Shown here one piece after another: positions 1,664 through 64,000 of a DNA stretch of 64,000 nt (positions within the stretch are counted from its first letter, which is position 1; each line of letters opens with the position of its first letter). A program made the position numbers and the translations under genes. Under the pieces are notes generated by a model, which was not told the DNA's origin, searched no databases, and was given only the letters and a program-made list of their open reading frames with translations. Source of the stretch: Malacoraja senta (taxonomy: Eukaryota). The DNA is taken from assembly GCA_038087875.1 (NCBI GenBank), contig CM075990.1:12712001-12776000 (forward strand). The letters are read 5' to 3'.

Positions 1664-2164
1664 TAGGTTTAAGGTGAAGGGGAAAAGATTGAATAAGAAT
1701 CTGAGGGGTAGCTTTTTCACACAAATGGTGGGGGGTGTATGGAACAAGCTGCCAGAGGAGGTAGTTGAGGCAGGGAAAATCCCAACATTTAAGAAACAGT
1801 TAGGGTACATGGATAGGACAGGTTTGGAGGGATATGGACCAAACGCAGGTGGGACTAGTGCAGCTGGGACATGTTGGCCGTTGTGGGCAAGTTGGGCCGA
1901 AGGACCTGTTTCCACACTGTATCACTCAATGACTATTTCTATGAGAACAAGGTAGACCTGACTGCTGGCCTAAGTAGGTCTACGAAATAGTATGCCTTGT
2001 GATGAATAATCTATTTAAAAGAATAGAGAGAAGCCGAGGATGTGTTGAAAGAATGAAAGAATAGGAAAGCCCTTCCTCCCCTCCGTCAATTTCTCCAGTA
2101 CATGGAAAAAATGATGAGTCGGCTTATTGACATCTAACAAATGCTCCACCTTCTTACACTATAC

Positions 2165-2311
2165 CTTTCCAATTTGTTCCAGTTCTTCCCTCAGGTCTTC
2201 GACATCCACACGGCCATCTTTGTGGACATTTAGCTTTTTGTAAAGATGTTCCCACAAAACGTTCACGTTTTTCGGCTCACCATAAAAGATGTCTTTGAAA
2301 CACGGCAACAT
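2165..2311 (-). CDS. Probable first coding exon of an EF-hand calcium-binding mitochondrial carrier (SCaMC, SLC25A23/24/25-like); gene continues off the left edge
   Basis: Acceptor ttttgtgtttcag, exon starting 2322; ATG at 2311; 49 codons MLPCFKDIF...WEHLYKKLNVHKDGRVDVEDLREELEQIGK; phase-0 donor AAG|gtatag. Resembles the recalled SCaMC-1 first EF-hand exon ([25 protein letters not shown]). Only one exon is visible. Confidence 0.6.
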
Positions 2312-11233: not shown

Positions 11234-11979
11234 CTATAAAAGAAAAAAAAATGCATGAGAATTTTGAGTTACAACTTAGAAAGGGCTGTAACAAAGATGT
11301 CAATTGTTGTCTATAATGGGTTTGTTGAAACGTGTATGCTCGCAGCAGGTTCAGTAATACAACATGATAAATCTGTTTCATGGACAAATAAACTATAGAC
11401 ATCCAACACATGAAAACATTAAATCTTTCGATTCTGATCTATAGTTTCCGGCTTTATCTTGTTCCCATTTAGAATAAAGGAGTCGTACTTCCTATTTTTC
11501 AATCTAATGGAACGTACTATGAATATCGGAAATTTAGGAAAATTAAAAACACATCCACCAACTCACTAGCCAATTCTCTTGAGACGAAAATTAAATCCAC
11601 CTGGAAACTTGTCAGTCCACAACTCTGATAATCTGTTCAGTAATATTTCCCTAGTGATGATATTTTTCATAGCTCCCCACTCTCAATTCCCAATTTATAA
11701 CTACTTTTCGGATGCTGTATAGTGAAGCCTAATGTAAAATACCCATTAAATGCATCTGTCATTTCCCTGTTTACCATTATTAATTCCCCAGGCCCACTTT
11801 CTATCACTCTAATTACTCACTTTGTTAGCTCTGCTTTTATTATATAGTTATACATTTCTGGCTAGCTATATTGAACACAGATACACAAATTCAAACTTCT
11901 ATGCTATTCTCGAAAAGTAGATATTCACTGAACTGCAAAGATTGGCAGATTGTTACAAACTAAAGGCATGAGTTCCCAC

Positions 11980-12084
11980 CTAGTTTCTTGGAGTATGCAT
12001 CCAATCTGTATGCTGCTTGTTCCAGTGCCGCTACTTGTTCTTCAATCTGACCGATCTGGTCAAGGTACGGTTGTAGGCTAGCAT
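11980..12084 (-). CDS. BLOC1S2: BLOC-1 subunit 2, exon 4 (105 nt)
   Basis: (Y)[38 protein letters not shown] boundaries, phase 1-1. Confidence 0.97.
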
Positions 12085-12968
12085 CTAGGATAAGGACCAT
12101 ACAGATCTTATTACCCACATGTCCCCTAACAAAACCAACATAAACAAATGTTATTGTGAAATAAACTGAAATGATTTGCAATCAACATCAATCCCCTACC
12201 CCCAATACCATGTGCTCTCATTTTGCACACTATCTCGTGTGGGACCCTGTCAAAGACTTTTTGAAAGTCCAGATACACCACTAGCTCTCCCTTATCCATT
12301 CTACTTGTTATATCCTCAAAAAATGCCAGAAGAGTAGTCAAGCATGATTTCCCCTTCATAAATCCATGCTGATATACCCAAGATTGTACTGTTAAGATCG
12401 TACAAACAATTGTATCATAAGGCTGCATTTTCCCACTTCCAATGGAGATTTACCTATAAACTAAAACAGGTGGTCACTGGATTAAATAAGGGTCCCATTC
12501 TTGAGAACTGTCCAATTTATTTGTAAGTCAGAAATGTCCTTTTTCTAAAGCAACCACCTCAATGTGAAGTTGAACATTGGAAGAACTAAATTTCTATGCT
12601 ACAAAATTCAATAAAGCCCAGATTAATGAAGGTATTGGGCTCAGCTCTGCAGATCCTCATTCATCTTGAGAATGCTGAGGACATTGTGCGCACCATCCAT
12701 ACAAATTGGTTTCAGCTCTGGCTTCCCCGTCTAGACGAATACAACATTCAGCTTTTGAAGTGGGGAAAAAACATCCAGTAATTAACTTGACTGTGTATTA
12801 ATCAAGAAACATCAAACAGTTGCTAATCTCAAAGAACTTCAAATAAGTAACTAAGATTCACTCAAACAAATCTCTATAGGGTCTGAAAAGTAGCTAAAGT
12901 GGTTACCAATTAAACAATGAATGATGTGTCCCTTTGCACGCCAGAACCTTGAAATGCCAACTACTCAC

Positions 12969-13088
12969 ATTTCTGATTTAGATCTTTGAGGTTGCGATTA
13001 ATATTAACAGCGATCTCCTTCATCTCAAGGTACTTAAGGCCAGTCACTTTGTTCATGTTCTCCAATAGTTTGTAATCTTCACAGGTAG
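12969..13088 (-). CDS. BLOC1S2: BLOC-1 subunit 2, exon 3 (120 nt)
   Basis: (A)TCEDYKLLENMNKVTGLKYLEMKEIAVNINRNLKDLNQK; acceptor tttacttag, donor gtgagt. Not in the ORF track; translated by hand. Confidence 0.97.
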
Positions 13089-14112
13089 CTAAGTAAACAG
13101 TTTGGCATACATCAATAACTCAATGATCAGTTATTTCTGCAATGTGCAATAGTCTGTTAAAGACAGCAATAGGTGTAAGTTTTCATGCTCAACCTAGTGA
13201 TGCTAACAATGTTTTTACCTTCAAATTGAAGTAGTCAGATTGATTACAAACACAGTTCATCAACCTACATGAACTCATTGTTCATATTAACAAGCATTAC
13301 ATTATTTTACTGCAACATTCAATTATTTTTAAAGGAACCCAGAAGACTATCTTCAAAAACCTGGTATTTTTTGTTAATAAATACATCCAGTCATAATTTT
13401 ACCCTTTCACATGTTAATGTGCTTATTTTGTTCTTCCATTATCCCTCAGTCAACATACCAGCTCCTTGAACACACACTCTCTCTCCCTCCACCCATACCC
13501 ACAAAAGAACGCAAATTAATCATTTAGACTTCACCTTTCCCTTCACTCCACTACCCTCTCCTTATTCTCAATCTTCACAATTATGTAATATACCATATAA
13601 TGGTCACATCTTTCAACTGTTTTAATTCTTCACCCAGCCCTTCCCAAACCCGTTACTCATTTCTTTGGTTCCCTCAACTGACTCCTGTGCTCCAGTTAAT
13701 TCCTCTTGCTTTTATACTAAAATGACATTACCTCTTTTCTATAATAAAGGCTAATGGAAATGTAATTTTACTGCACTAGTTTTCTCAGAAAATATTAGCT
13801 CAGTTTACATCAAGCAAGTTGAACAATTAGGAGCCTAAAGTTCAGAATGTAAAGTGGATCTGCCACAGCCCTTTTTTGAACTGCAGGATAAATCAGTACA
13901 TTATTGACCAGCAGAAGCACCTTAAGGATGTACGATGTTACCTTGAAATTAAAACCCAAATGAAACAAGACAAAAAATCCAGTTGTTTCTAAAAAGCTTA
14001 TCCTGTAAATGTGCAAAGGATGATTACAGTGGTGTGAAACATGACATATACTGCTCGAGATGCAGAGGTCAGTTGTGAATTTTAATCACTGCAAAACCAA
14101 CCACCAACTGAC

Positions 14113-14229
14113 CTGTAAGCTCTCCTTGCAGATAGACGGACATTTTTGTAAACATCTCCTTACAGAGTTCATTTATGTCTGGTTCTGAAGGTTCTGTAGC
14201 TTCCTCTGCTGTCTCCACTCCAAAATCAT
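14113..14229 (-). CDS. BLOC1S2: BLOC-1 subunit 2, exon 2 (117 nt)
   Basis: (D)DFGVETAEEATEPSEPDINELCKEMFTKMSVYLQGELT; acceptor ttctctgacag, donor gtcagt. Confidence 0.97.
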
Positions 14230-15171
14230 CTGTCAGAGAAAATATATAACTAGTATTACAAGTAAACCCATTGACTCAAAAAGTGGAGGTGATAAGAGAA
14301 GAATAGAACCAAGATCCACAATTTGTTTTTAATCCAAATTAGAAAATTTCCAATCATAAAACATCTTTGGAAACGTACAGAAACAAATGTGTAGTCCTCA
14401 ACATTGGTGTTTTATATACAACTGTGGTGGTATTCAAAAGGTTTAATGTACATTTCGTATTTTATTATTTAACATATGTAAATAGATTTTAATTTCATAA
14501 ATGAATTCTGACTTGGAAAGATTGGTGTGAAACTGGCAAACACGTTAAAAACATCCCAATTTATGGTACGTTGCGCCACCTCAAGAAAGTTCCCAGGGAT
14601 TTGACCATGTACGACAGAGCAAGCAGCATCAGGAGATGTTGACTAAATATATTTGTTTAAATGGCAGATGCTGGAAATCTAAACTAAAAACAGAAAGTAC
14701 TGGCAATATTCAGTGTGTCAGGCTGCAATTGTAGAAAGAGAAACAGAGATAATGTTTCAGGCTGAAGATCCTTTATGTGAAATGGAAAGCGGAAGCATAA
14801 AGAAGCTTGAGAAGCTGCTGGGATGGGGGCGCAGGGGAGGGGGGTGGAGAGATGGTGTCTCTGGAAGGGTAAAACTAGTGACAATGGATTTTACCCTTTC
14901 AGAGTTATCCCTTCACCCTTAGACTCCCTGAAGCTTAACAAGCTATTTTCTTTTCTTCTTTGACCTGAAATATTAACTGTTTCTCTTCCAACAAATGAGC
15001 TGCTGAATATTTTCAGAATTTTCAGTTTTTATGTAAGTACATAGAAAGTTTCATTCGCATGAACCAGTTCACAGAATGTCCTGTGAACTTCGAAACATTT
15101 TACCAGTATACAAGCATATCTTGGCCTCTGTTCATCAAAACTATGTTATGAACGACAAACTACTTTGTAGT

Positions 15172-15650
15172 CCCTGCAGTTCACCTGCACCTCCTCCAAC
15201 CTCATCTATTGCATCCGCTGCTCTAGGTGTTAGCTGCTCTACATCGGTGAGATCAAGCGTAAGCTTGGCGATCGCTCCGCCCAAGACCTCCGCTCGGTTT
15301 CATTTACCTACCTGATCTCCCGATGGCTCAGCACTTCAACTCCCCCTCCCATTCCGAATCCGACCTTTCTGTCCTGGGCCTCCTCCATGGCCAGAGTGAG
15401 GCCCACTGTAAATTGGAGGAGCAGCACCTCATATTTCGCTTGGGCAGTTTGCACCCCAGCGGTATGAACATTGACTTCTCTAATTTCAGGTAGTCCCTGC
15501 CCTCTCCTCCCCTTCTCAGCTCTCCCTCAGCCCACTGTCTCCGCCTCTTCCTTTGTTCTTCCCGCCCCCCCTCACATCAGTCTGAAGAAGGGTCTCAACC
15601 TGAAACGTTGCCTATTTCCTTCGCTCCATAGATGCTGCCTCACCCGCTGT
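15172..15650 (+). mobile_element. Penelope-like retroelement 3' fragment (GIY-YIG remnant plus terminal repeat)
   Basis: Collinear with the minus-strand GIY-YIG copy at 44415-45024; includes CTGAAGAAGGGTCTCAACCTGAAACGTT. Confidence 0.82.
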
Positions 15651-15819
15651 CTATCTGCAGTTAATAGAGATTGTTTTAGTTTTGGTGAACAGCACGTAAA
15701 ATGGGCCCTTTGGCTCAGTGTCCATGAGGACCATCGATTAGTAATTTACACCATGTCTGTGTTATCCCATTTTTTCATCCATTTCGTACACTATGGACAA
15801 CTTATCGAGATAGAGATAA

Positions 15820-15995
15820 TAATTAACCTGCAAACCTGACCCATCTTTGGTTTGTAGGAGGAAACACGAGCACCTGGAGGATACCCACCCAGTCTCAGGG
15901 AGAACATGTAAACTTCATGCAGACAGCACCTGAGGTTCTGGATCGAACATGGACTCTGGCACTGTGAGACAACAGCTCTTCCAGCTGTGCTGCCC
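15820..15995 (-). mobile_element. tRNA-derived SINE (V-SINE/HE1-like), degraded
   Basis: Minus strand shows an A-box-like head, a B-box-like GTTCGATCC, then ...GAAGTTTACATGTTCTCCC...GGTGCTC.TGTTTCCTCC..CCAAAGA, resembling the V-SINE central domain (recalled). Confidence 0.6.
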
Positions 15996-16597
15996 CACAC
16001 ACGATAATGTAAATATACCCAGATGTTTATTTCCATAATGTTAATCAAGAAACAAATAATGACCAAGCAGCAAGGTGAATTCCCTTGTGGTTTTACATAG
16101 GTAGAGTATATGTCCACATTAAACAACGAGTTGCTTCATATTATGCCATGTAATTTCAGCCAAAATTTCTGCATGGATCTTTAGAATGAGGCTTGAAAAT
16201 GTTAACACAAGGAACAGTATTTGCTTGAATGTTGACCAAATGGAAGTTGTGCAAGTCTGAATTTGGAAGTGGAACGGTCCAGTGAACAAAATGCTTCCCA
16301 CCAGCAGCTCCATTTCCCGTTGCATATAATTAACAACTCAACATTAACTGGTAGGAGGATTGGATTTAGTTATTTTAACACTTGGCCTGGACATCAATGG
16401 TAAACAAAAGCAGCCATTATTGTTTTGAAAGTGCGTGTGGTGTTGCAGGCAATGGGACTACAGAGCGAGCGGTGAGAAGCGGTCCCCGGCATTTATTTGA
16501 GCTCCATGCACCGCTGCACTGCTCTCTCCTCCCCGGTGCGTGAACAAGGGGAGAGGGAACCAACCCCGGGCCCCCCAGACCGGCTCCAGCTGCTTAC

Positions 16598-16739
16598 CGG
16601 TCCTCTTGCCTCCGCCCTCCGCCACCTCCTGCTCCCCCGCATCCCCGTGACCGTTGTCGGCCGTGCCGGCCCCCAGCGCCGGGCCTGCGCCGCCATCGCT
16701 CAGCGGACGCGGCTGCGGCTGCGGATCCACCTCCGCCAT
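16598..16739 (-). CDS. BLOC1S2: BLOC-1 subunit 2, exon 1 (142 nt coding)
   Basis: ATG in a good Kozak context (AAGATGG) within a CpG island. Encodes MAEVDPQPQPRP...GGGKRT. The phase-1 donor CCG|gtaagc joins exon 2 in frame. Total CDS is 516 nt (171 aa). Confidence 0.9.
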
Positions 16740-16890
16740 CTTGCCTCCGACTGCGGGTCACGTGATGGCGGGGTCACATGACCGCGCGGCAACCCGCCGG
16801 TCTGCGTCATGCCCCCCACGTGATGCAGAGCGGGTGGCCCCGCCCCTTTGGGGGGGGGGAGGGGGGACAGACGGTGCTGGGGCCACGTGG
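16734..16890 (-). promoter_or_regulatory. BLOC1S2 CpG-island promoter with clustered E-box/CLEAR motifs
   Basis: GTCACGTGAT 16757-16766, GTCACATGAC 16773-16782, CACGTGA 16817-16823, CACGTG 16884-16889, a GC box near 16838-16847, and a YY1-like CAAGATGGCG over the ATG. Confidence 0.8.
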
Positions 16891-20289: not shown

Positions 20290-20663
20290 CAAGAACATGT
20301 ACAAACGTTTTATTTAATCACGCAGGAGGAGTTACAAATGGAAATATTTCACAGAGCTCATACAACAAAAAACACATTTTCCCCTTACATCTGCCACACT
20401 GATCCACGATGTGCTCACCAGCAGTAAAACTAAATGGTGGTACATTATATTAGTTTAAAAACTTTACACAAGAACTTTTGTCCCCTTTACAAAACAATGT
20501 CACAGTCAAGTATTACTTGCATTTAAAAAGAAAAAATACAAAGGAAAAGTAAAAAGTCCAAATTCAACACTGCCCATAATGCAAAAAAAATCTGTGACCG
20601 ATTTCTTCACTTAAAGGATTTCAAAAGATGTCTATTCCCTCTTGTTATTATATTTGCCGCCGC
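20290..20663 (-). other. hnRNP D-family gene, terminal non-coding 3'UTR exon
   Basis: Branch-like CTTAAC near 20695-20690, acceptor cccttctgtttttcag, exon starting 20663. The exon is U-rich, with overlapping ATTAAA/AATAAA at 20318-20309. The 3' end is approximate. Confidence 0.75.
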
Positions 20664-21283
20664 CTGAAAAACAGAAGGGACAACCACAAGGTTAAGCCTT
20701 TTACCTCAGCTTTGTAGAAGCAGACAGTAACCATGTGAAGTACTGGGCTGGCCGAGTCATGTTTACTGTTTTATCAATATTGGATTAGAAGAATTAGTTT
20801 GATGAGCAAAACTATATTTTTGTTTGATTGGTAGTTATCTTCAAAGGAATTACCCAAGTCCTCCATGCTCTTGGGCCCAGCCTTCAGTTGTTATGCCAAC
20901 TGCATTTACAATATATTAACTATAATCACACACTGCAGATGCTGTAAAAATATACAAGTCCATTAACATTACAGACATCAGTCACGCATCACTACTGAGC
21001 TATAGAAAGAAAAAAGCAAGCATTATTTAGCAATTGGTAGTACATTACCAAATTACACACTACTAAAAGAAAGCACTTTTGTAAGAACGGCTTTATCCAT
21101 TGAAGAAACAGGAGGTCATGGCTATATTACCACTTAACTTGAGCCTGTAAAGAAAATATGACTACATAATTTTATCTAAAAAAAGGAAAAACAATGGCTG
21201 CGTGAATGAAAGTGTATAATTAGAGTTTTTTTTAAACTGTCTTTAATCTTTATGGTGAGACAGAAGGTTGGAAGAGACCATAC

Positions 21284-21369
21284 CACAGGGCATCTCGAAT
21301 TCTGTCCACAATGTGCAGGCTTGTACGAATCGTGTGGTCATGGTGACATGGCCTGCAATGAAGTTCCCA
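21284..21369 (-). other. 86-nt 3'UTR cassette (poison) exon of the hnRNP D-family gene
   Basis: tgtttgtacctgccag|TGGGAACTTCATTGCAGGCCATGTCACCATGACCAC...CCCTGTG|gtatggtctcttccaac. The start, end and downstream intron resemble HNRNPD exon 9 / HNRNPDL exon 8 as recalled. Confidence 0.82.
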
Positions 21370-22763
21370 CTGGCAGGTACAAACATAACGGTACAAGTCA
21401 GAATTAGACTGGTAGAATTCTTATCAGGCTGTTGCTCTGATGTTCTTAAAACCCATTATGGTACATTACCTGAGATCTTTTACTCATTAAGTGTTCAAAT
21501 ATCTCTAGGTTATCCTTACACAATTTACTGCTGTAACTAGCTATGCAAAAATTCAAAGCTAAATGGGAGTAAGAGTAAAAAAAGTTATACCCATATTTAA
21601 CACTTAGAATAATTACATATCTGCAGCATAAAAATAGGCAATTCATGAATCTAGATTATATTAAGCACAGAAATTAAAGAGCTAGTTCAATCTGGTGACA
21701 AATTGTCAAGTTAATACTACACACCAAAGCAATTGATGACATTATATAATCTCACAATCCGATAAGTACTGCCCATTTCAGAACTCTAGTTTTACTTCTA
21801 GGTTGTCCAGTGAAATGCTTCCGCCCCAAAAATAAGTACTTACATGATGATTTGAATTGTCATTTCTGCCCTACTAATTCAATATAGAGCAGTATATGGA
21901 AACCATTAGATCATCAGTGGTAGCCTTAAAATTACAATGAATTGGAGCGTGGCATGTTGTCCTCTCATTACTCCACAACCCACTCTCGCAAACAGCCAGA
22001 TCCACGAACCAATTTATAAACTACACGCTCTCCTACAAACTCTGAAATTAGTCTCACATACATCATTTTAATTTTAAAAATGCAGCTATAATTCAATGAC
22101 TAAGAAAGGAGGATTTGGGTCCATGAAATCCAAGGCTTAATTGTACTACGTAACCTCAATAAGATGAGTTTTTACATCTATCATAAAAGGTTCTTCTTGT
22201 TTTTCCACTCAAGAGATCAGACATTTATGGCACAGAATGAATCCCATTGGTCTTATTATACCTGTGCAATGTGAAAGAACCATTTAATCTAATTTAATTT
22301 AACATAACCCTATAAACCTGTACTTCTATTTTTTGGGTAGTGACCTCAGAACTAATGCTACCCGCTTCTCACATCTAATACATCTAACAATTTTTAATCT
22401 ATGTGCCTAATTTATTGATCATGGATAGCAATCAAGCACATTTGGCATTGCATCACAGCAACAGTTTAAGACTCCGAAGTTGAATTTAATATTGCAAAAC
22501 GTAGGTAGCTTACCATCAACTGAAATCCATTAAAAAAAAATTACATTACAGACGCGGTGATGTATGCACAAGTTAGTGGACAGTGAAGGTTTCAGATGAA
22601 CTGTGGAGTTTATGATTTTAGGGTACCGGCAAAGGCTTAATATAAGGGCAATTTTAGAAAATATTGAACCAGCTTTTTAATTCTATATGTGCAATGTGGC
22701 CTCAAGTACCCAAGAAACATAGCTTTACCTTGTTCCTGGAGAGCTTCGGAACAGTCAAGTCAT

Positions 22764-22834
22764 CTAATAAGGCCTATACTGAGTTTGGCCACTTCCTCCT
22801 CTCCTAGGAGCTTTACCATAGGTGCCTGGTTGAC
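22764..22834 (-). CDS. hnRNP D/DL/AB-family protein, exon 7 (stop-containing; exon continues as UTR to 22729)
   Basis: (S)QPGTYGKAPRRGGSGQTQYRPY-TAG, the family's C-terminal PY-NLS-type end. Acceptor ttttcag; donor AAG|gtaaag lies 35 nt after the stop. Confidence 0.93.
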
Positions 22835-31639: not shown

Positions 31640-34600
31640 AATGGTATAGCAGCGATATAGCACAGGTGGGCAGGAAAGAGAGTGGGAGAGCTCTAGTGAT
31701 AGGGGATTCCATGTAACGGGAATCGATAGGCGTTTCTGCGATCGCAAAAGAGACTCCGTGATGGTATTTTGCCTCGCTGGTGCAAGGGTCAAGGATGACT
31801 CGGAGCGGCTGCAAGGCATTCTTGGAGGAGGAGGGCGAACAGCAAGTTTTAGGTGGGCACGTAGGTACCAGCGGCATAGGTAGAAAACGGGATGAGGTCT
31901 TACAAAGCGAATTTAGGGAGTTAGGAAGTAAATTAAAAAGTAGGATCCCAAAAGAGTCAAGAGTGTTTTATTGTCATATGTCCCGGATGGGACAAGGAAA
32001 TTCTTACTTGCTGCAGCACAACAGAATATGTGAATATGCAAACATTGTATATAACGGGGGGGGGAAAGAAAAAGTTCAATAAATGAAAAAAAATAGTGGT
32101 TACCAAATAATAATATACTTTTGCAATTCAGAGCTCATAGCTTATTCGTTGTGTTTAATAGCCTGATGGCTGTGGGGAAGTAGCTGTTCCTGAACCTGGA
32201 CGTTAGTATTCAGGCTCCTGTACCTTCTTCCTGATGGCAGTGGTGAGATAAGTGTGTGGCCAGGATGGTGTGGGTCCTTAATGATTTTGGCTGCCTTTGA
32301 GGCAGCAACTACGATAGATTCCTTCGATGGTGGGAAGATCAAAGCCGGTGATGGACTGCGCAGTGGTCACAACCTTTTGTAGTCTTTTTCGCTCCTGGAC
32401 ATTCAAGTTGCCGAATCAGGCCATGATGCAACCAGTCAGAATGCTCTCTACCGTGCACCTGTAGAAGTTTAGGAGAATCCTCTTCGACATGCCGAATCTC
32501 CGTAATCTTCTCAGGAAGTAGAGTCGCTGATGTGCCTTCTTTACAATTGCATCGGTGTGCTGGGTCCAGGAAAGATCTTCTAATATATGCACGCCCAGGA
32601 ATTTGAAGTTATAGACCCTCTCCACCATCGTCCCGTAGATATAAACAGGATTGTGGGTCCTCATCCTTCCCCTACTAAAGTCCACAATCAGTTCCTTGGT
32701 CTTACTGATGTTGAGAGCCAGGTTGTTGTGCTTGCACCATTTGGTCATCTTTGGATTACTACCAGTGCCACGTGCTAGTAAGAGTAGAAATTACAGGATA
32801 TTTCAGATCAATCCATGGCTTGAGAGATGGTGCAAGGAGGTGGGATTCATATTCCAGGGCATTGGAACCGGTTCTGGGAGAGGTGGGACCAGTACACCTC
32901 GGCTGGACTGGAACCAATGTCCTCAGGGGAGTGTTTGTTAGTGCTGTTGGGAAGTAATTAGTTTAAACTAATATGGCAGGGAATATGGGATCCAATGCAG
33001 GGAGACAGAGGGCTGTAAAATGAGGGCAGAATCTAAAGGTAGAAGGGAGAAAAGTAGAAGTGGAAGGTCTAAGAATATTAAAATAAACCTGAAAGCTTTG
33101 TGCCTTAATGCGAGGAGCATTCGTAATAAGGTGGATGAATTTAATGTGGTTAGTTGTTAATGGATATGCTATAGTTGGGATTATGGAGACATGGCTCCAG
33201 GGTGACCAAGGCTGGGAGCTCAACATGCAGGGAATTCAATATTCAGGAAGAATAGACAAAGGAAGAGGAGGTGGGGTGGTATAGCTGGTTAAAGAGGATA
33301 TTAATGCAATAGTAAGGAGTAACATTAGCTTGGATGCTGTAGAATATGTATGGGTGGAACTGCGAAATAGCAAAGGGCAGAAAACGCTTGTTGGAGTTGT
33401 GTACAGACCACCAAACAGCAGTAGTGAAGTTGGGGGTATTAGGAAATTAGGGATGCGTGTAGCAAAGGTATAGCAGTTATCATAAGTGACTTTAATCTAC
33501 GTATAGATTGGACTAACCAAATTGGTAACAACACGGAGGATTTCTTGGAATGTATACGGGATGGTTTTCTAAGTCAATATGTAGAGGAACCAACTAGAGG
33601 GCATGCCATCCTAGACTGGGTATTGTGCAATGGGGAAGGATCAGTTAGCAATCTTGTAGTGCAAAGCCCCTTGGGCAACAGTGACCATAATATTGTAGAA
33701 TTCTGCATTAAGATGGAGAGCGACACAGTTAATTCAGAGACATGGGCCCTGAACGTAAAGAAAGGTAACTTTGATGGCATGAGATGGAAATTTGCTAGGA
33801 TAGACTTAAGGTTGACAGTGGATATGCAATGGCAAAGATTTAAAGATTGCATGGATGAATTATAACAATTGTTCAAACTTGTCTGGCATAAAAATAAAAC
33901 AGGGAAGGCGGCTCAACCGTGGCTAACGAAGGAAATTAGGGATAGCGTTAAATCCAAGGAAGAGGCATATAAATTGGCCAGAGGAACCAGCAAACCAGAG
34001 GACTGGGAGAAACTTAGAATTCAAGAGGAGGACAAAGGGGTTAATTAAGATACGGAAAATAGAGCATGAAAGAAAGCTTGTGGGGAATAAAAACTGACTG
34101 AAAGCTTCTATAGATATGATACGAGGAAAAGATTAGTGAGGAAAAATGTAGGTCCCTTACAGTCAGAAACAGGTGAATTTATAATGGGAAACAGGGAAAT
34201 GGCAGAGAGATACTTTGGTTTTGTCTTCACTAAGAAAGACAAACAATCTCTCAGAAATACTAATGGACCGAGGATCTAATGGGAGGGAGGAACTGAAGGG
34301 AATCCATGTTAGTCAGAAAATGGTTTTAGGTAAACTGTTGGGACTGAAGGCAGATAAATCCCCAGGGCCTGATGGTCTGCATCCCAGAGTACTCAAGGAG
34401 ATGGCCCTAGAAATCGTTGATGCATTAGTGATCATTTTCCAAAGTTCTATAGACTGAGGATCAGTTCCTGTGGACTGGAGGGTAGCTAATGTAACCCCAC
34501 TTTTTAAGAAAGGAGTGAAAGAGAAAAGAGGGAATTATAGACCAGTTAGACTGATATCGGTTGTAGGGAAGATGCTCGAGTCAATTATTAAATATGTAAT

Positions 34601-35890
34601 AGCAGCGCATTTGGAAAGCAGTGACAGGATCGGTCAAAGTCAGCATGGATTTATGAAGGGGAAACCATGCTCGACTAATCTTCTGGAATTTTTTTGAGGA
34701 TGTAACATGTAGAATGGATAAGGGAGACCCAGTGGATGTGGTGTATCTGGATTTTCAAAAAGAATTTGACAAGGTCCCACACAAGAGATTAGTGTGCAAA
34801 ATTAGATCATATGGTATTGGGGGTAGGGGATTGACATGGTTGGCAGACAGGAAGCAAAGAGTAGGAATTAACGGGTCGTTTGAAAAATGGCAGGCAGTGA
34901 CTAGTGGGGTGCCGCAACACTCAGTGCTGGGACCCCAGTTATTTACAATATATATTAACAATTTAGACAAAGGAGTTAAATGTAACACTTCCAAGTTAGC
35001 GAATGACACAAAGCTGGGTGGCGGGGTGAGCTACAACGAGGCTGCAGGGTGACTTGGATAGGTTGGGTGAGTATAATGTGGATAAATGTGAGGTTATCCA
35101 CTTTGGTGACAAGAACAAGGCTGCAGATTATTATCTGAACGGTGTCAGATTTGGAAAAGGGGAGGTGCAATTAGACTTGCGTGTGTCCTTGTACATCAGT
35201 CACTGAAAGTAAACATGCAGGTACAGCAGGCAGTGAAGAAAGCAAATGGCATGTTGGCCTTTATAGCGAGATAATTTGAGTATAGGAGCCAGGAGTTCCT
35301 ACTGTAGTTGTACAGGGCCCAGGCAAGACCACACCTGGATTGTGTGCAGTTTTGGTCTCCTAATTTGAGGAAGGACATTCTTGCTATTGAGGGAGCGCTG
35401 CGTAGGTTCACCAGATTAATTCCCAGGATGGCGGGACTGACGTATGATGAAGGAATGGATCAACTGGGCTTATATTCACTGGAATTTAGATGGATGAGAG
35501 GGGATCTTATAGAAACATATACAATTCTTAAGGGATTGGACAGGCTAGATGCAGGAAAAATGTTCCCCGTGTTGGGGGAGTCCAGAACCAGGGGTCACAG
35601 TGTAAGAATAATGGGTAGGCCTTTTAGGACTGGGATGAGGAAAAATGTTTTCATCCTGATAGTTGTGAATCTATGGAATTCTCTGCCACAGAAGGCAGTG
35701 GAGGCCATTTCACTGGATGTTTAACAGACAGTTTGATATAGCTCTTAGGGCTAATGGAATCAAGGGATATGGGGAGAAGGCAGGAACGGAGTACTGATTT
35801 TGAATGATCCGCCATGATCATATTGAATGGCGGTGCTGGCTTGCAGGGCCGAATGGCCTACTCCTGCACCTATTTTCTATGTCTATGTTT
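31640..35890 (+). mobile_element. Near-full-length CR1-type LINE (esterase-type ORF1 remnant, APE endonuclease, RT), decayed, antisense in hnRNP intron 2
   Basis: ORF1-like LVIGDS / HVGT..IGRKRDEVLQSEFRELG; endonuclease-like CLNARSIRNK and SDHNIVEF; RT-like KSPGPDGLHPRVLKE, QHGFMKGK, YLDFQK.FDKVPH and SGVPQ.SVLGP; CTAT-repeat tail near 35875-35890. Confidence 0.93.
31955..32745 (-). mobile_element. Rex1/Babar-like LINE 3' fragment nested in the CR1 ORF1
   Basis: WCKHNNLALNISKTKELIVDF...FKFLGVHI...KKAHQRLYFLRRLRRFG...FYRCTVESILTGCI; AAGAGT-type repeat tail near 31952-31964; CR1 sequence resumes at about 32745. Confidence 0.85.
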
Positions 35891-53990: not shown

Positions 53991-54036
53991 AGAGGGAACC
54001 AACCCCGGGCCCCCCAGACCGGCTCCAGCTGCTTAC

Positions 54037-54166
54037 CGGTCCTCTTGCCTCCGCCCTCCGCCACCTCCTGCTCCCCCGCATCCCCGTGACCGTTGTCGGC
54101 CGTGCTGGCCCCCAGCGCCGGGCCTGCGCCGCCATCGCTCAGCGGACGCGGATCCACCTCCGCCAT
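54037..54166 (-). CDS. BLOC1S2: BLOC1S2 exon 1, duplicate copy (12-bp deletion, G>S change)
   Basis: MAEVDPRPLSDGGAGPALGASTADNG...KRT|gtaagc. No exons 2-5 adjoin it; the gap begins 46 nt into intron 1. Confidence 0.75.
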
Positions 54167-57100
54167 CTTGCCTCCGACTGCGGGTCACGTGATGGCGGGG
54201 TCACATGACCGCGCGGCAACCCGCCGGTCTGCGTCATGCCCCCCACGTGATGCAGAGCGGGTGGCCCCGCCCCTTTGGGGGGGGGAGGGGGGACAGACGG
54301 TGCTGGGGCCACGTGGCTGCAGCTCATGTCATACGGTCGTAGAGTGAGTGACAGTGTAGAAACAGGCCCTTCAGCCCAACTTGCCCACACCGGCCAACTT
54401 GCCCCAGCTTCACTCGACCCACCTGCCAGCATTTGGTCCACACCCCTCCAAACCTCTCCTGTCCATAAGTGATGGGAGCAGAATTGGACCATTCGGCCCA
54501 TCGAGTCTACCCCACCATTCAATCATGGCTGATCTATGTATCTCTCCCTCCTAACCCCAAATTCCTGCCTTAGAGTCATACAGTGTGGAAACAGGCCCTT
54601 TAGGCCCAACTCGCCCAATAATGTCCCAGCTACCCTAGTCCCACTTGCCTGTGCTTGGTCCATAACCCGACAAACCTGTCCTATCCATGTACCTGACCAA
54701 GCAAGCATAGGTTTGGCGATCATTTCGCCGAACACCTCCGCTCAGTCCACATTAACCAACCTGATCTCCCTGTGGCTCAGCACTTCAACTCCCCCTCCCA
54801 TTCCGAATCCGACCTTACTGTCCTGTGCCTCCTCCATGGCCAGAATGAGCACCACCGGAAATTGGAGGAGCACCTCATATTCCACTTGGGCGGTTTGCAC
54901 CCTAGACTTCTCCAATTTCCAGTAGCCCTTGCTGTCTCCTCCCCTTCTCAGCTCTCCCTCAGCCCTCGGGCTCCTCCTCTTCCTTTCTCCTTTCTCCCCC
55001 CCCCCCCCCATCAGTCTGAAGAAGCGTTTCGGCCCAAAACATTACCTATTTCCTTTGCTCCATAGATGGTGCTGCATCCACTGAGTTTCTCCAGCACTTT
55101 TGTCCACCAACTGTTTCTTAAACAATGGGATAGTGGCCTCAACTACCTCCTCTGGCAGCTTGTTCCATACACCCACCACCCTCTGTGTGGAAAAAGTTAC
55201 CCCTCTGATTCCTGTTAAATCTTTTCCCCTTCACCTTGAACCTATGTCCTCTGGTCCTCGATTCCTCTACTCTGGACAAAAGACTGTGCATCTACCCTAT
55301 CCATTCCTCTCATGATTGTGTATACTTCTAAGATCACCCCTCACCCTCCTACACACCTTGGAATAGAGACCCAGCCTACTCAACCTCTCCCCATAGCTCA
55401 CACCCTCCAGTCCTGGCAACATCCTCGTAAATCTTTTCTGAACCCTTTCAAGCTCGACAATATCTATCCTATAACATGGTGCCCAGAACTGAATACATTA
55501 TTCTAAATGCGGTCTCATCAATGTGTTATACAACTGCAACATGACCTCCCAACTAAAATACTCAATACTCTGCCTGATGAAGGCCAAAGTGCAAAGTGCC
55601 TGTTTGACCTCCTTATCTATCTGCGACTCGACCTTCATGGAACCATGCACTTGTACTCCTAGATCTCTGCTCCACACTACCCAGAGGCCCACCATTTACC
55701 CTGCCCTTGCCCATTAGGTCCTGCCCTTGTTCGACATCCCAAAATGCAACACCTCACACTTCTCTGTATTAAATTCCATCAACCAATTCTCCCCCCACCT
55801 GGCCAATCAATCCAGATCCTGCTGCAATTGTTCACAACCATCTTCACCATCTGCAAAACCACTAATCAGAAAACTTGTTAATCTTGCCCTGTATGTTCTC
55901 ATCCAAATCATTGATGTAGATGACCTACAGTAATGGGCCCAGCACCAAACCCTGTGGCACATCACTAGTCACAGGCCTTCATTCTGAGAAGCAACCTTCC
56001 ACCATCACCCTCTGCTTTCTTCCATGGAGCCAATTTGCTATCCATTCAGCTACCTCTCCTTCAATCCCATGAGATCTAACCTTCCAGAGCAGCCGACCAT
56101 GCGGCACCTTGTTGAATGCCTTAAAGTCCATGCACACATCTGCTGCTCTGCCTTCATTAACCTTTCTGCTCGCCTCTTCAAAAAAATCAGATTTGTGATA
56201 CACGCCCTCCCACGTTCAAAACCGTGCTGAGTGTCCCTAATCAGCACTTGCCCATCCAAATGTCTGTGGCTCCTCAGAATACTCTCCAGATCGAAGGCAG
56301 GAACGGGGTACTGATTGGGGATGATCAGCCATGATCACATTGAATGGCGGTGCTGGCCCGAATGGCCTACTCCTGCACCTATTGTCTATTGTAACTTACC
56401 AACTACAGATGTTAAGTTCCCAGCATTTTCCCTGCAGCCCTTCTTGAAAAGAGGCACATTTGCCATCCTCTAATACTGGCATCTCTGTATTTTACAACGA
56501 CTCATAAATTTCAACCAGGGCTCCCGCAATCTCCTCGGATATATCTGAATAGGCCCCGGAAATTTGTCTACCTTCAAACCCGACAGTACCTTCAGTACTT
56601 CCTCGACAGTAACGCTGAATGCTCTCATGACACTTCCAGTGACTGCTCCAATTTCCTACGTCCTACTGTCTTTCTCATCGATAAATACTCATTGAGGACC
56701 TTGCCCATCTCCCGTGGCTCCACAGAGGTGACCACTTCTATTCCTGAGAGAACCCACTCTCTCTCTAGTTACCCTTTTCCCCCTAATGTATTTATAAAAT
56801 ATTCTGGGATTGTCTTTTATGCTACCCGCTGAAGCTCTCTCCTGGCCCTTTTGCCCTTCTGATCTCCTTTTTTAGTTTGCTCCTAAGTTCCCGAAACTCC
56901 ACCAGGTATGCCCTTCTCCGCAGAACCACTGACACCTGTACTAATCAAGAATCTATCTATCTCTGCCTTAAAAATATCCATCAATTTGGCCTCCACAGCC
57001 TTCTGTGGCAAAGAATGTCACATCACAGACTCCATCTGCACTTCAGAAAATAGGCACAAAATGCTGGAGTAACTCAGCAGGATAGGCAGCATCTCTGGAG

Positions 57101-58716
57101 AGAGAGAGAGAGAGAGAGAGAACGTGGGACATTTCGGGTCAAGATCCTTTTCAGACCACAGAGAGGGAGCAGGCGAGTATGTTGCATCTCTCAATGGAGA
57201 GAGGAGAACTTCGAAGTAGGCATACCGTGAGGAGATTTTGCAGTGGAGCAGACAAAATGTGTAGGAAGGAACTGCAGATGCTAGAACCAAGCAGAGATTC
57301 ACTTGCACCTCCTCCAACTTCATCTACGGTTCCAGGTGTGGAATCCTATATATTGGCTAGACGGAGCAGACTCTGCGATCGTTTCGCTGAACACCTCCGC
57401 TCAGACTTGCACGATCTCCCGGTTGCCAACCATTAACTGTGCTTCTATTGACAATCCGAAGTTACCATCTCTCCACCCCCATCAAATTTCACCCCAATAA
57501 TTTATGAAGGTAACATTCCTGCATTAAAGCCATTTCAATTAGATCAAGTGAGGTCTTAAATAAATTCCAAGGAAAAAATTCAGTTAAAATGTTCTTACAA
57601 TACAATCCAACAGCAATGCTGTGGAAAAACGTAAGTGCTATTAACTTTGATCACTTCATAAAGTTGGCAAAGCTTTGATTTTTTTTTAAATATATATAGA
57701 TAAAGGACTGTAGTAGAGATGCCAAGAACATGTACAAACGTTTTATTTAATCACGCAGGAGGAGTTACAAATGGAAATATTTCACAGAGCTCATACAACA
57801 AAAAACACATTTTCCCCTTACATCTGCCACACTGATCCACGATGTGCTCACCAGCAGTAAAACTAAATGGTGGTACATTATATTAGTTTAAAAACTTTAC
57901 ACAAGAACTTTTGTCCCCTTTACAAAACAATGTCACAGTCAAGTATTACTTGCATTTAAAAAGAAAAAATACAAAGGAAAAGTAAAAAGTCCAAATTCAA
58001 CACTGCCCATAATGCAAAAAAAATCTGTGACCGATTTCTTCACTTAAAGGATTTCAAAAGATGTCTATTCCCTCTTGTTATTATATTTGCCGCCGCCTGA
58101 AAAACAGAAGGGACAACCACAAGGTTAAGCCTTTTACCTCAGCTTTGTAGAAGCAGACAGTAACCATGTGAAGTACTGGGCTGGCCGAGTCATGTTTACT
58201 GTTTTATCAATATTGGATTAGAAGAATTAGTTTGATGAGCAAAACTATATTTTTGTTTGATTGGTAGTTATCTTCAAAGGAATTACCCAAGTCCTCCATG
58301 CTCTTGGGCCCAGCCTTCAGTTGTTATGCCAACTGCATTTACAATATATTAACTATAATCACACACTGCAGATGCTGTAAAAATATACAAGTCCATTAAC
58401 ATTACAGACATCAGTCACGCATCACTACTGAGCTATAGAAAGAAAAAAGCAAGCATTATTTAGCAATTGGTAGTACATTACCAAATTACACACTACTAAA
58501 AGAAAGCACTTTTGTAAGAACGGCTTTATCCATTGAAGAAACAGGAGGTCATGGCTATATTACCACTTAACTTGAGCCTGTAAAGAAAATATGACTACAT
58601 AATTTTATCTAAAAAAAGGAAAAACAATGGCTGCGTGAATGAAAGTGTATAATTAGAGTTTTTTTTAAACTGTCTTTAATCTTTATGGTGAGACAGAAGG
58701 TTGGAAGAGACCATAC

Positions 58717-58802
58717 CACAGGGCATCTCGAATTCTGTCCACAATGTGCAGGCTTGTACGAATCGTGTGGTCATGGTGACATGGCCTGCAATGAAGTTCC
58801 CA
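58717..58802 (-). other. Poison exon, duplicate copy
   Basis: Same sequence as 21284-21369. Confidence 0.75.
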
Positions 58803-60196
58803 CTGGCAGGTACAAACATAACGGTACAAGTCAGAATTAGACTGGTAGAATTCTTATCAGGCTGTTGCTCTGATGTTCTTAAAACCCATTATGGTACATT
58901 ACCTGAGATCTTTTACTCATTAAGTGTTCAAATATCTCTAGGTTATCCTTACACAATTTACTGCTGTAACTAGCTATGCAAAAATTCAAAGCTAAATGGG
59001 AGTAAGAGTAAAAAAAGTTATACCCATATTTAACACTTAGAATAATTACATATCTGCAGCATAAAAATAGGCAATTCATGAATCTAGATTATATTAAGCA
59101 CAGAAATTAAAGAGCTAGTTCAATCTGGTGACAAATTGTCAAGTTAATACTACACACCAAAGCAATTGATGACATTATATAATCTCACAATCCGATAAGT
59201 ACTGCCCATTTCAGAACTCTAGTTTTACTTCTAGGTTGTCCAGTGAAATGCTTCCGCCCCAAAAATAAGTACTTACATGATGATTTGAATTGTCATTTCT
59301 GCCCTACTAATTCAATATAGAGCAGTATATGGAAACCATTAGATCATCAGTGGTAGCCTTAAAATTACAATGAATTGGAGCGTGGCATGTTGTCCTCTCA
59401 TTACTCCACAACCCACTCTCGCAAACAGCCAGATCCACGAACCAATTTATAAACTACACGCTCTCCTACAAACTCTGAAATTAGTCTCACATACATCATT
59501 TTAATTTTAAAAATGCAGCTATAATTCAATGACTAAGAAAGGAGGATTTGGGTCCATGAAATCCAAGGCTTAATTGTACTACGTAACCTCAATAAGATGA
59601 GTTTTTACATCTATCATAAAAGGTTCTTCTTGTTTTTCCACTCAAGAGATCAGACATTTATGGCACAGAATGAATCCCATTGGTCTTATTATACCTGTGC
59701 AATGTGAAAGAACCATTTAATCTAATTTAATTTAACATAACCCTATAAACCTGTACTTCTATTTTTTGGGTAGTGACCTCAGAACTAATGCTACCCGCTT
59801 CTCACATCTAATACATCTAACAATTTTTAATCTATGTGCCTAATTTATTGATCATGGATAGCAATCAAGCACATTTGGCATTGCATCACAGCAACAGTTT
59901 AAGACTCCGAAGTTGAATTTAATATTGCAAAACGTAGGTAGCTTACCATCAACTGAAATCCATTAAAAAAAAATTACATTACAGACGCGGTGATGTATGC
60001 ACAAGTTAGTGGACAGTGAAGGTTTCAGATGAACTGTGGAGTTTATGATTTTAGGGTACCGGCAAAGGCTTAATATAAGGGCAATTTTAGAAAATATTGA
60101 ACCAGCTTTTTAATTCTATATGTGCAATGTGGCCTCAAGTACCCAAGAAACATAGCTTTACCTTGTTCCTGGAGAGCTTCGGAACAGTCAAGTCAT

Positions 60197-60267
60197 CTAA
60201 TAAGGCCTATACTGAGTTTGGCCACTTCCTCCTCTCCTAGGAGCTTTACCATAGGTGCCTGGTTGAC
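60197..60267 (-). CDS. hnRNP D-family exon 7, duplicate copy
   Basis: Same sequence as 22764-22834. Confidence 0.85.
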
Positions 60268-62543
60268 CTGAAAATAAAATTAGTTGAAGAAAAGGATTTG
60301 TCAACTCTTCAGCTGTTGACTACCTTTTGAACTAAACTGTTGTTCAGCCAAAACCTTTGCCAGAAGTGTCAGTTTGGCTCAGCTGGTAGCAACCTCATCT
60401 CCAGTAAGGAACCAGTGGGTTCCAAGCTCCTAATCAGATTGGAATGCTAAATCCAGGTTGATTGTTACAGTACAGCGCTGAATTATGCAGTGATAAAGGT
60501 GCCATGCTTCAAATGAGATGTTAAGCAGAGGCAGCGTATAATCTAGAAGATTCTCTCGTACTATTCCAAGAAACCAGCAGCTCACGATACTCCACAACTG
60601 GCACAAAAAACAAACCACGACCATTCATTTTATGTTGTTGATGGCATGCTGTGCATAAAGTGGATGAGTTTATCTACGCAACAGTAACTTCATTTCGGAA
60701 GTAGTTGGTTGAGGAGTGTTTTAGGACAGCTAGCTAAAATATTGCTATTACAAGTCAGTTCTTTGACATAGCTTTAATTAATATGCACACTGCAAGTTGC
60801 AACTTTCCAAGCAGCTAATTTAAAAACAGACAGACTTGCATCAAGTTTTTGTTCCTTTATCAAATACAGTAGCAGTTTTACAATGTCAGAGGTTTCATTT
60901 ATACTTCACAGCATGGAAGTATCAGCTTCTCCTGATCACACAGAAGTATGGATCAAAGCCAAATTCCCTTCAGATTAAATTGGCATACATTCTATCCTGT
61001 ACGAGTTCTTCGTGGAAGTTGAAATCAAATATAAATATACAAATACACTTTAAACAGCAGAGTAGTGCCAACAGCAGCAGGTACTTTCATTCAAATCAAA
61101 TTTCACGTTAAAATTCATCCAACCAACATCTACTGGTTGTTTTTAGGAGGTGTGAACAAAGATTGCACTGGGTTGTGCTCTATCAAGGCATCATACAAAC
61201 ATTGTTCTTAGGGTGAAGATATATCCTATTTAAATAGTAAACAAACTTTTCATGAAATGCCCAATTTTACCCTTGAATGGGTATCATATCAGTTCTATTC
61301 ATCAATCAAATTTGGAGGGATATCTAGTCAATTTTGGAGTTTTCATTTCTCATTGTAGCTGGAAAGATAGCATTCCTTTTCTTATGGGAACATAATTATT
61401 AACAAGATCTCTCCATTTCACCACAGATCAATCTGGAATAGTAAGATTTTCTGATTTTGTGGTAAGAAAAGGCACTATAACAAAATAGGAGTTATTTATG
61501 GAATACTACAAACTTCCCTGGACAGAGGATGCTATCAAAAAAATGCACACCGGGTCCTTTAACGGCTCAGAAGAGGGCATGTAATTCTCTTGTTGCTTGA
61601 CAAATACTCAGGCCTTGCCAAAGTTATTACCGTTCTAATGTATGTACCAAATCGTAATCGTATTCTCAGCTGTCTGCAAGTATATGTCCATCACAGGATC
61701 TGGTATATTGCTGACCTAGGGTGAAAACCCTAAACAATAACCTCCCTGTCCAAGGAAATGTAGAGACCAGTCCCACTTGAAGGCATCAGCCATGGCTCAG
61801 GTGGTTAATTTCACCTCAGAATCAAAGCTGTGAGTTCAAGCCTAAGGGATTGAGCATAACATTCAAAATGGAACTCCCAACACAACAAAGAAATTATGCT
61901 ACCATCAGAGACTCGGTCATATTAAATGATGGCCATAACTGCCCTCAGGTGGATATATAATGACAAGCTGAGTGAGTTTCCCCAGTGGCCCAGTCAAATA
62001 ATTCCTCAGAACACATCTAAAAGGGATGATCAAGTTATTTAATGCATTGCTATTTGCGGGTACTGCTGTGTACAAATTGGCTCGAGTTTCCTCTATTACA
62101 CTAACTATACTGAAAAAAAAGCATTTAATTCGATGCCGAGTGTGTTAGGATGCGATGTAATTAACAACAAAAAAATAAACAAGTCTTTAATTTATACCTA
62201 CCACTGTCCAAGTGCAGATGATCTAACACCAGAGTCTGCAAAATCCAATTGTCTCCCTAGTAAGCAATCATCCAGGCAACAGTTTGGGGGAAAACTATGT
62301 TCTCTCTCAGCTTCTCCAAGCCAGACAAATACCGAGTAGGTGTGACTCACTATTAATGACTAACAAATCACCTGCTAGAGAGACAAAGAAAGCCACTCTC
62401 CATTTTTCCACTCCTTTTGCAAATATTTCTCTACATCAGATTAGCCAAGATCAGCAACCCAGAAGACTGACAGAATATGGGACTACTTACTGGATTTTGT
62501 CAAGTAAACTATTGAGAATTGACTCCTGGTCACTGAAACTTAC

Positions 62544-62711
62544 TGTTATAATCACCATATCCCTGTCCATAACCATAATAGCCATAGTTGTATGCTGGGT
62601 AGTCATAGCCACTATATCCACCATAATTCTGGTTATAGCCATAGTTATAATTTCCATAACTTGGGTTCCAATAGTTACTGTTGTAGCTTTGGCTCCAGGT
62701 CTGACTTTGTC
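62544..62711 (-). CDS. hnRNP D-family exon 6, duplicate copy
   Basis: Same sequence as 25111-25278. Confidence 0.85.
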
Positions 62712-64000
62712 CTAGAAAGGGAAAAACAAACAATTATTAGCAATTCAGTGGACAAAAAAAGTATCAATATTTGTACAGACCACGTTTCATCTTTATGGCA
62801 GCAATCCATACACCTCATTCTCAACTGTAGTTGTGAATTAGATGGATAAACAACAGAAAGCTACCAAAGCAAATAGACAAAGCAAATAAAGCATAAGATT
62901 GACAGAGTTGCTGGTACATCTCATGGCAAAAGATTGAATTTGATCCTATAATCCAGACCCTCAGAATAATTTAATTCCAGCACAGTATTATGTGGAGCTG
63001 TACTGTCCAGACCCACATAAACATGGCCATAGCTTGCAAGCGAAAGACTGAACATTTGGATGGTTGCAAGATTATTGCAAGTTACCCCATCTCCTGGCCA
63101 ATCCGCATTCAACCATATCAGATGAACGATTTGAATCATTCAACAGCTGCTTAAGGAATCTTTTTTTTTTAAATTAAGACATTATAAATGACACTTCCCA
63201 TTGACTGCATGCACAATCATTCTGAAGGAATGATTTGCAATTTAAATGCAAGCCTTTTCTATGTGAACATTTCATCATATATTGTCTACAGTCATGACAG
63301 TCGTGCCAACGGGATAAAATAACATAGTATTTCCGTGTTATAACACACCGATACCTTGCATAGCACAATTTAGCACGGGATGTTTGCAGGAACAAGAGGA
63401 TTAATTGAATTAACAATAAAAAAAGGACACAAGAGACAGAAGCTGTGCTGGGAATCCATCGTGAATTAGACATCCCACCCCCACCCAGAATTACTGCACT
63501 AGGCACAAACTGCCACCCTTCCTATCACAACACACCACTTTGCTGGAAACCTACTCTGCTGATGTTCCCTCAGCAAAGAACTGCCCATAGCTCAGTATGA
63601 AGATGTTGCCTGTGAAAGTTGCTATTGAGAAAGCAGCTTAACCGTTTGCTGCCAAGATGTGTTGCTCAGAAGCTGCACTCCAGCCAGATTTTTCCTTGAA
63701 AGTGGTGTCATCTTGTAGGAAAGATATCAAGCTGGAAAGGGTTTAGAAGATTTGAGCTTGTTGCCAGGACTCGAGGGCCTGAGCTACAGGGAGAGGTTGA
63801 GCAGGCTAGGACCCTATTCTTTGCAATGCAGGAGGATGAGGGGTGATATTATAGAGGTACACAAAATCATGAGGAATAGATCGGATAAACACACAATGTC
63901 TCTCGCCCAGAGTAAGGAAATTGAGAACCAGAAGACATTGGTTTACAGTGAGGGAGGAATGATTGAATAGGAACCCAAGGGGTAACCTTTGGTTTTACAC

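Follow-up and report, generated by a model that had tools for sequence, protein, structure and literature searches.

A gene of the hnRNP D family on the minus strand of the analysed window (the whole stretch of 64,000 nucleotides) carries in its 3'UTR a small cassette exon which shares a common origin with the HNRNPD and HNRNPDL poison exons, and whose inclusion likely routes the mRNA of this gene, a fourth paralogue of the family, to NMD, with the hnRNP D-family proteins likely acting through it as a feedback brake. The use of such cassettes by HNRNPD and HNRNPDL in alternative splicing coupled to NMD has been published, and the gene itself is already annotated under automatic names.

The gene model comprises nine exons and predicts a hnRNP D-family protein of 370 aa. 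Coding exons 1-6 were placed, on the basis of the gene model and orthologue proteins, at 49302-48983, 37717-37549, 28220-28062, 27578-27447, 27153-27060 and 25278-25111 (minus strand). Exon 7 (22729..22834, minus strand, from the gene model) encodes a C-terminal tail of the PY type, the stop codon TAG at 22766-22764 and the 35 nt of 3'UTR that follow it. This tail aligned weakly with the C-terminal ends of hnRNP D and DL present in PDB entries 2z5n and 7zir (E 0.1 and 0.45). The last exon (20295..20663, minus strand) is entirely 3'UTR and was defined by RNA reads; it contains AATAAA at 20318, and poly(A) tails were found at 20293-20296. The domain set, obtained from a Pfam run on an orthologue (P0002), consists of CBFNT, two RRMs and a G/Y-rich tail. 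The protein is near-identical to models of Leucoraja and Amblyraja, RefSeq models named 'hnRNP D-like', such as XP_055517729.1, represent the same gene with a near-identical product of 370 aa, and judged by this sequence similarity the source genome is that of a skate.

Exon 7 was found to be skipped in 8 reads of RNA run X24 (junction 25111 to 20663, minus strand), an event which replaces the PY-type tail with a short tail with an NKRE end. Annotated proteins of Amblyraja, Heterodontus and Pristiophorus also end in NKRE, and those of Stegostoma do not. Skipping of exon 7 may alter nuclear import.

The cassette, exon 8 of 9, is a non-coding exon of 86 nt at 21284..21369 (minus strand), situated after the exon with the stop codon and before the terminal one, and the reading frame is the same with or without it. 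The preliminary description had placed the stop codon 35 nt from a donor at 22729, and had proposed that the exon 21369-21284 shifts the last junction to 121 nt after the stop. Both points were confirmed: the stop-to-last-junction distance is 35 nt when the cassette is skipped and 121 nt when it is included, the exon is bounded by AG and GT, and the last exon starts from 20663. The two inclusion junctions that it had predicted, 22729>21369 and 21284>20663, are present in raw RNA reads of a related species. In run X24 of that species, the upstream inclusion intron of 1359 nt was covered by 6 reads with 5 start sites, the downstream inclusion intron of 620 nt by 4 reads with 4 start sites, and the skipping intron of 2065 nt by 182 reads. 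Inclusion of the cassette in X24 was therefore 2.7% (95% interval 0.9-6.1%), a value based on small counts from a related species and on a sample of about 5% of this single run. Another run, X23, which is a 3'-biased library, contained 2 downstream inclusion reads against 7 skipping reads, a ratio left out of the estimate. Two sets of assembled contigs contained the skipping junction only, as expected where rare forms are lost. None of the 24 listed runs bears a label of NMD inhibition. The low steady-state inclusion is compatible with NMD, and equally with rare splicing.

The splice sites of the cassette lie within conserved sequence. The branch and acceptor region (21370..21400, minus strand), which has a weak pyrimidine tract, can be aligned in all three paralogues, the window gene, HNRNPD and HNRNPDL. 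On the other side of the exon, the donor site is followed by conserved intron sequence (21255..21283, minus strand), the first 17 intron bases being identical in the three paralogues. In the data of a distant relative, in which a fraction of 0.04 of the region's sampled words recurs, a single contig of 173 nt covered 21282-21454 with 5 differences and no gaps (97% identity). This piece, which includes the acceptor region, was the sole stretch among 1201 nt to match at 80% or more, and it establishes presence only. Skate DNA runs X16 and X18 differed from the window at just 4 and 6 positions in 1.2 kb, and are uninformative about constraint.

The preliminary description had noted a resemblance of the exon to HNRNPD exon 9 and HNRNPDL exon 8, and this resemblance was borne out. 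When positions 21200-21450 (251 nt) were used as a DNA query against the 1.94-Gb genome, four matches were returned at E<=10. One was the query locus and one a second copy identical to it; the remaining two lie 36 kb apart on contig C1 (E 7e-25 and 3e-21). The two contig C1 sites fall at the 3' ends of the tandem HNRNPD and HNRNPDL genes, recognised from their coding exons, so that the D and DL poison-exon matches anticipated from a nucleotide search were obtained within the genome of the window itself. The window cassette is identical at 73 of 86 positions to the skate HNRNPD cassette (107 nt), and at 71 of 86 to that of skate HNRNPDL (105 nt). When the 3' region of the gene was divided into 25 windows of 120 nt, two windows over the cassette scored far above shuffled sequences against D and DL (98/96 and 57/58, with shuffle maxima of 40 and 24), and the others were at shuffle level. 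The likeness of the cassettes is not due to chance, given just four genome matches at E<=10 and two of 25 windows above shuffles.

The geometry is also shared. In skate HNRNPD the last junction lies 29 nt past the stop when the cassette is skipped and 136 nt when it is included; the corresponding distances in skate HNRNPDL are 30 and 135 nt. The DL exon is used as well in the species sampled by run X22, in which 4 reads span the junction of DL exon 7 with the DL cassette. The tie to the human exons was made through the skate D and DL orthologues, equal exon lengths and one published primer. The human product sizes listed by Kemmerer 2018 (Table S1, PMC5824352), 464/357 for D and 313/208 for DL, correspond to cassettes of 107 and 105 nt, and the human and skate lengths are equal for both genes. 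The primer given there for the human DL junction has an exon-8 part that ends like the window cassette.

The correspondence with HNRNPDL exon 8 (uc.144), as described in the same paper (PMC5824352), extends to its 3'UTR placement between stop-codon exon and last exon, to the donor region, which is the same, and to the 3' end of the exon, which is alike. In each case the skipped junction lies less than 50 nt from the stop (22 nt in human, 30 nt in skate DL and 35 nt here), and inclusion adds a junction more than 55 nt away. The differences are that the DL exon has 105 nt rather than 86 nt, and that it belongs to another gene on another chromosome. HNRNPD (AUF1) exon 9, also covered by Kemmerer 2018, has the same position, the same logic and the same flanking donor-like and acceptor-like motifs as the window cassette. 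Compared with HNRNPD exon 9, the window cassette is without about 19 nt of the 3' half, and its host gene is not HNRNPD. The upstream intron also differs, having 1359 nt in the window gene, where the skate D and DL introns measure about 300 nt.

These length differences, together with the low inclusion, could be taken to mean that the exon is a decaying relic and that its inclusion is splicing noise with no regulatory role in the host gene. The cassette is 19-21 nt shorter than those of D and DL, which are themselves closer to each other (84 of 105 positions identical), and it is included in only about 3% of cases. However, the 73 identities in 86 positions have been kept where the other 3' sequence of the paralogues cannot be aligned, and the identity is 97% over 173 nt in a relative in which just 0.04 of the sampled words recur; a relic is considered very unlikely.

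For the human D and DL cassettes, NMD and both auto- and cross-regulation have been demonstrated (Kemmerer, Fischer and Weigand 2018, PMC5824352), and an earlier study of HNRNPD (AUF1) exon 9 is cited there (Banihashemi 2006). Mouse Hnrnpdl exon 8 is temperature-sensitive and is included on heat (PMC7726792). NMD and feedback, shown for human DL (PMC5824352), are predicted here for the window gene. As it agrees with the D and DL cassettes in position, in geometry and in core sequence, the skate exon most likely acts as they do. By this analogy with the human genes, the mRNA form containing the exon would be a target of UPF1, and a rising level of the protein in the nucleus would lead to more inclusion and hence to more mRNA decay. 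The RRMs are 73-77% identical and all three genes possess the element, which makes cross-regulation with D and DL plausible; D, DL and the protein of the window gene may then regulate each other through it.

The gene was treated in the preliminary description as a possible separate paralogue, and the comparisons support this. Judged from its sequence, the host gene is a fourth hnRNP D-family paralogue, distinct from D, DL and AB. The identity of its RRM core to proteins of sharks, rays, skates and elephant shark is 94-100%, and the next proteins share at most 81%; the RRMs are 78-81% identical to those of cartilaginous-fish AB and 75-77% identical to those of D. No bony-vertebrate protein of this type was present in the best 120 of 984 and the best 120 of 931 matches, nor among 27 sequences inspected from the best 150 cluster representatives, 24 of the representatives being looked up by name. 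On the basis of these best-ranked protein matches, the gene is likely confined to cartilaginous fishes and was likely lost by bony vertebrates. Single species carry all four genes on three chromosomes; for example, in Hemiscyllium the gene is on a 36.8-Mb contig, AB on one of 87.8 Mb, and D and DL on one of 167.6 Mb. HNRNPAB was not found in the assembly of the window, and identity of the gene with HNRNPAB was ruled out, as named skates and sharks hold a separate AB.

Phylogenetic analysis was based on 186 RRM-core columns from 37 chosen proteins under LG+G4, and a mixture model was applied to 26 of these rows. On the LG+G4 tree the gene and its orthologues form their own clade (100/98), placed outside D+DL+AB (90/87), with the lamprey protein and invertebrates further out; the mixture model recovered the same clade (96/98) and the same placement outside D+DL+AB (85/89). 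The gene falls in none of the D, DL or AB clades or loci: D and DL lie elsewhere in the same genome, and the named species carry AB alongside it as a gene of its own. Support for the node outside D+DL+AB is moderate, not strong.

The competing view is that the gene arose later, by duplication of AB or of D/DL in jawed vertebrates or in cartilaginous fishes, in which case the cassette need not predate the second doubling. It draws on the closeness of the RRMs to cartilaginous-fish AB (78-81%, against 75-77% for D) and on a tree of whole proteins, which joined the gene to cartilaginous-fish AB (90/84). That tree was set aside on account of its low-complexity tails and of a probable chimera: it contained the elephant shark protein P0016 (UniRef V9KVZ5), which looks like a chimeric transcript, with RRMs of the gene's type and a tail nearly that of the AB protein P0088. 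With the RRM core, grouping with cartilaginous-fish AB, D or DL alone was rejected by the AU test (p 0.017, 1e-6 and 6e-4), and the mixture model also rejected the cartilaginous-fish AB grouping (p 0.031). These rejections argue against a shark-specific duplicate. Positions sister to all AB, all D or all DL were not rejected (p 0.07, 0.09 and 0.07), which counts in favour of the competing view. Taken with the chromosomal evidence described below, a later duplication of either kind is considered unlikely.

The chromosomal neighbourhood of the fourth paralogue provides a synteny marker. In the window it is accompanied by BLOC1S2 (11960..16757, minus strand), identified by a Pfam BLOC1_2 match (E 3e-11) on the exon 11963-12181; the other BLOC1S2 exons in the window are presumed ones. 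Upstream neighbours recognised from sequence are TYSND1 (L025:337-1602, plus strand) and a SPOCK/testican gene (L032:2968-3180, minus strand). The latter we take to be SPOCK2, and BLOC1S2, TYSND1 and SPOCK2 are all, as we assume, on human 10q. The contig with D and DL also bears a SPOCK paralogue, at a distance of 69 Mb from D. Neighbours of the SCD and CWF19 types, sought by family searches, gave no match on the contig of the gene; one Wnt gene was seen on this contig, 7.6 Mb away.

In the little-skate genome paper (PMC10115646), Hnrnpd-1 and Hnrnpdl are on chromosome 1, Hnrnpab is on 11 and Hnrnpd-2 is on 34, with Bloc1s2 about 30 kb from Hnrnpd-2. The spacing between the gene and BLOC1S2 in the window is 33 kb, in agreement with this. 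The little-skate 'Hnrnpd-2' is the same gene, appearing in the supplement of that paper as a table row with an automatic name. In the literature examined, no text was found on the orthology or the poison exon of Hnrnpd-2 or of the 'hnRNP D-like' models, and a literature search, whose scope left out most subscription journals, returned no paper on the fourth paralogue or its exon. The paper reports 19 ohnologues kept in cartilaginous fishes only (PMC10115646), and these may include the host gene.

In the linkage map of that paper, the row for linkage group I/Q assigns chromosome 34 to 1-alpha, chromosome 1 to 2-alpha and chromosome 11 to 2-beta, the 2-alpha cell carrying the map authors' own question marks, and the labels 1 and 2 denote the first doubling (PMC10115646). 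The gene is therefore on a segment (1-alpha) paralogous to that of D and DL, and its surroundings are paralogous too, with SPOCK paralogues on both contigs. This location in a 1-alpha segment beside TYSND1 and SPOCK, with the SPOCK paralogue on the D/DL contig, also speaks against the origin of the gene by later duplication. The map and the tree are concordant in suggesting that the first vertebrate genome doubling separated the gene from the D/DL/AB line; the cassette, being common to both lines, would then have been present before it. The poison-exon switch thus probably predates the first vertebrate genome doubling, as judged from the published chromosome map and a moderately supported tree node. 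The suggestion of the preliminary description that the switch is older than the duplication of the family is upheld in this narrower form. According to this map and tree, the gene would have split off with the switch already in place, and its copy would have been lost in bony vertebrates.

The human 4/5/8/10 paralogon described by Larsson 2008 (PMC2453138) contains two hnRNP D-family members on chromosome 4 and one on chromosome 5, and members of the family were suspected there to have been lost in human and mouse. The window gene would be the missing member of the chromosome-10 type in this paralogon, kept in cartilaginous fishes.

Only two SPOCK genes were found in the genome of the window, and this, together with the missing HNRNPAB, suggests that either the assembly or the search lacks the equivalent of skate chromosome 11. 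Predicted HNRNPAB isoforms of sharks and skates (P0420, P0450 and P0425) are without the last coding exons and continue instead into an exon further downstream. From these sequences, AB of cartilaginous fishes may retain a 3'UTR intron; human HNRNPAB is not known to have such introns.

Beyond the cassette itself, the alignment of the three paralogues revealed two flanking motifs, both defined post hoc, once the alignment had been seen. The first is a donor-like 12-mer at 21461..21472 (minus strand), a possible decoy site, whose GT is located 100 nt before the cassette, compared with 97 nt in D and DL. It occurs three times in 728 kb (both strands), once ahead of each cassette. The second, an acceptor-like 10-mer at 21143..21152 (minus strand), has its AG ending 139 nt after the cassette, against 114 nt in D and 120 nt in DL, and occurs six times in the same 728 kb (both strands), three of these following cassettes. 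The paralogous pairs are near 8065 and 7748 of L006, and near 3912 and 3591 of L010. By local score alone, the window containing the upstream motif was not above shuffles. Searches of literature text with three motifs gave no matches, pattern scans of metagenome contigs found no vertebrate copies, and Rfam gave no matches in 19500-50000. The flanking motifs merit no more weight than a hint at decoy or nested splicing.

These motifs invite a different reading, in which the old conserved element works mainly by withholding or re-routing splicing, through intron detention or decoy sites, with NMD triggered by the EJC being secondary. The preservation of the donor-like 12-mer 97-100 nt upstream and of the acceptor-like 10-mer 114-139 nt downstream in three paralogues would accord with such a role, as would the unspliced sequence of introns 7-8, which forms a single contig in two runs. 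In the RNA reads of related species, however, no junction using either flanking motif reached the 3-read listing threshold, and the depth of intron 6 is near that of introns 7-8 (12.8 against 17.7 in X1, and 72.6 against 90.6 in X7), so that retention is not clearly specific. Human D minigene assays reported by Kemmerer 2018 (PMC5824352) were also without intron 9-containing isoforms. Splicing detention as the main function is accordingly regarded as very unlikely, and NMD of the included form remains the preferred mechanism.

A stem hiding the donor, suggested by a consensus fold, was considered and rejected. In folds of single sequences its pairing probability did not exceed 0.18, its stability was no better than that of shuffles (z-scores of 0.1 to 0.9 at 37 C), and compensatory change was seen in none of 34 pairs among three sequences.

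The cassette might also be the core of a larger module that existed before the first doubling, composed of a decoy donor about 100 nt upstream, the poison exon, and a decoy acceptor 115-140 nt downstream. Such a module could be read by three, perhaps four, paralogues in sharks, skates and rays as a shared dosage-sensing loop, which bony vertebrates have cut back to D and DL. This extension of the NMD switch is tentative, and we would sooner doubt than accept it.

Some features of the window concern the assembly rather than the gene. Past a 200-N gap, positions 53991..64000 hold the start of a second copy of window 16552-53790 with 99.8-99.9% identity, which continues to C14:12803260. The repeated block is 37 kb long and holds the whole gene and BLOC1S2 exon 1; the cassette in the second copy is identical, at 58802-58717. 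Repeat matches of identical score were also seen at 5.13/5.14 Mb of C14 and at 9.96/9.99 Mb of C19. The 37-kb repeat is probably a false duplication in the assembly, as other apparent tandem gene repeats suggest an assembly artefact. Elsewhere in the window, an exon-like sequence at 2159-2416 (minus strand), with no Pfam match on the exon alone, resembles the EF-hand N-terminus of a calcium-binding mitochondrial carrier, presumably of the SLC25A24 type. Positions 286-1296 (minus strand) hold what we take, from its motifs, to be a Tc1/mariner-like transposase in two frames, and LINE reverse-transcriptase-like fragments occur throughout the window, e.g. at 33400-35750.

It is still a question why RNA-binding proteins have ultraconserved poison exons and at what time these exons originated. 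In human, D and DL are adjacent, and are alike enough that comparing them narrows the answer little. The mechanism is already known, so the surprise is moderate; what the skate gene supplies is a third copy, more distant than these two and located on a different paralogous chromosome, which gives the exon a probable date before the first doubling and predicts its occurrence in lampreys and hagfish. This third copy also serves as a natural deletion and mutation scan, in which about 20 nt of the exon appear dispensable. Kept across the copies are the acceptor, the exon's first half, 17 bases of intron past the donor and two flanking motifs resembling splice sites. If the tentative reading of a larger module were true, the bases unchanged in three copies would show which parts of the human element of uc.144 type do the work, and these working parts would include the two flanking sites, for which no description was found.
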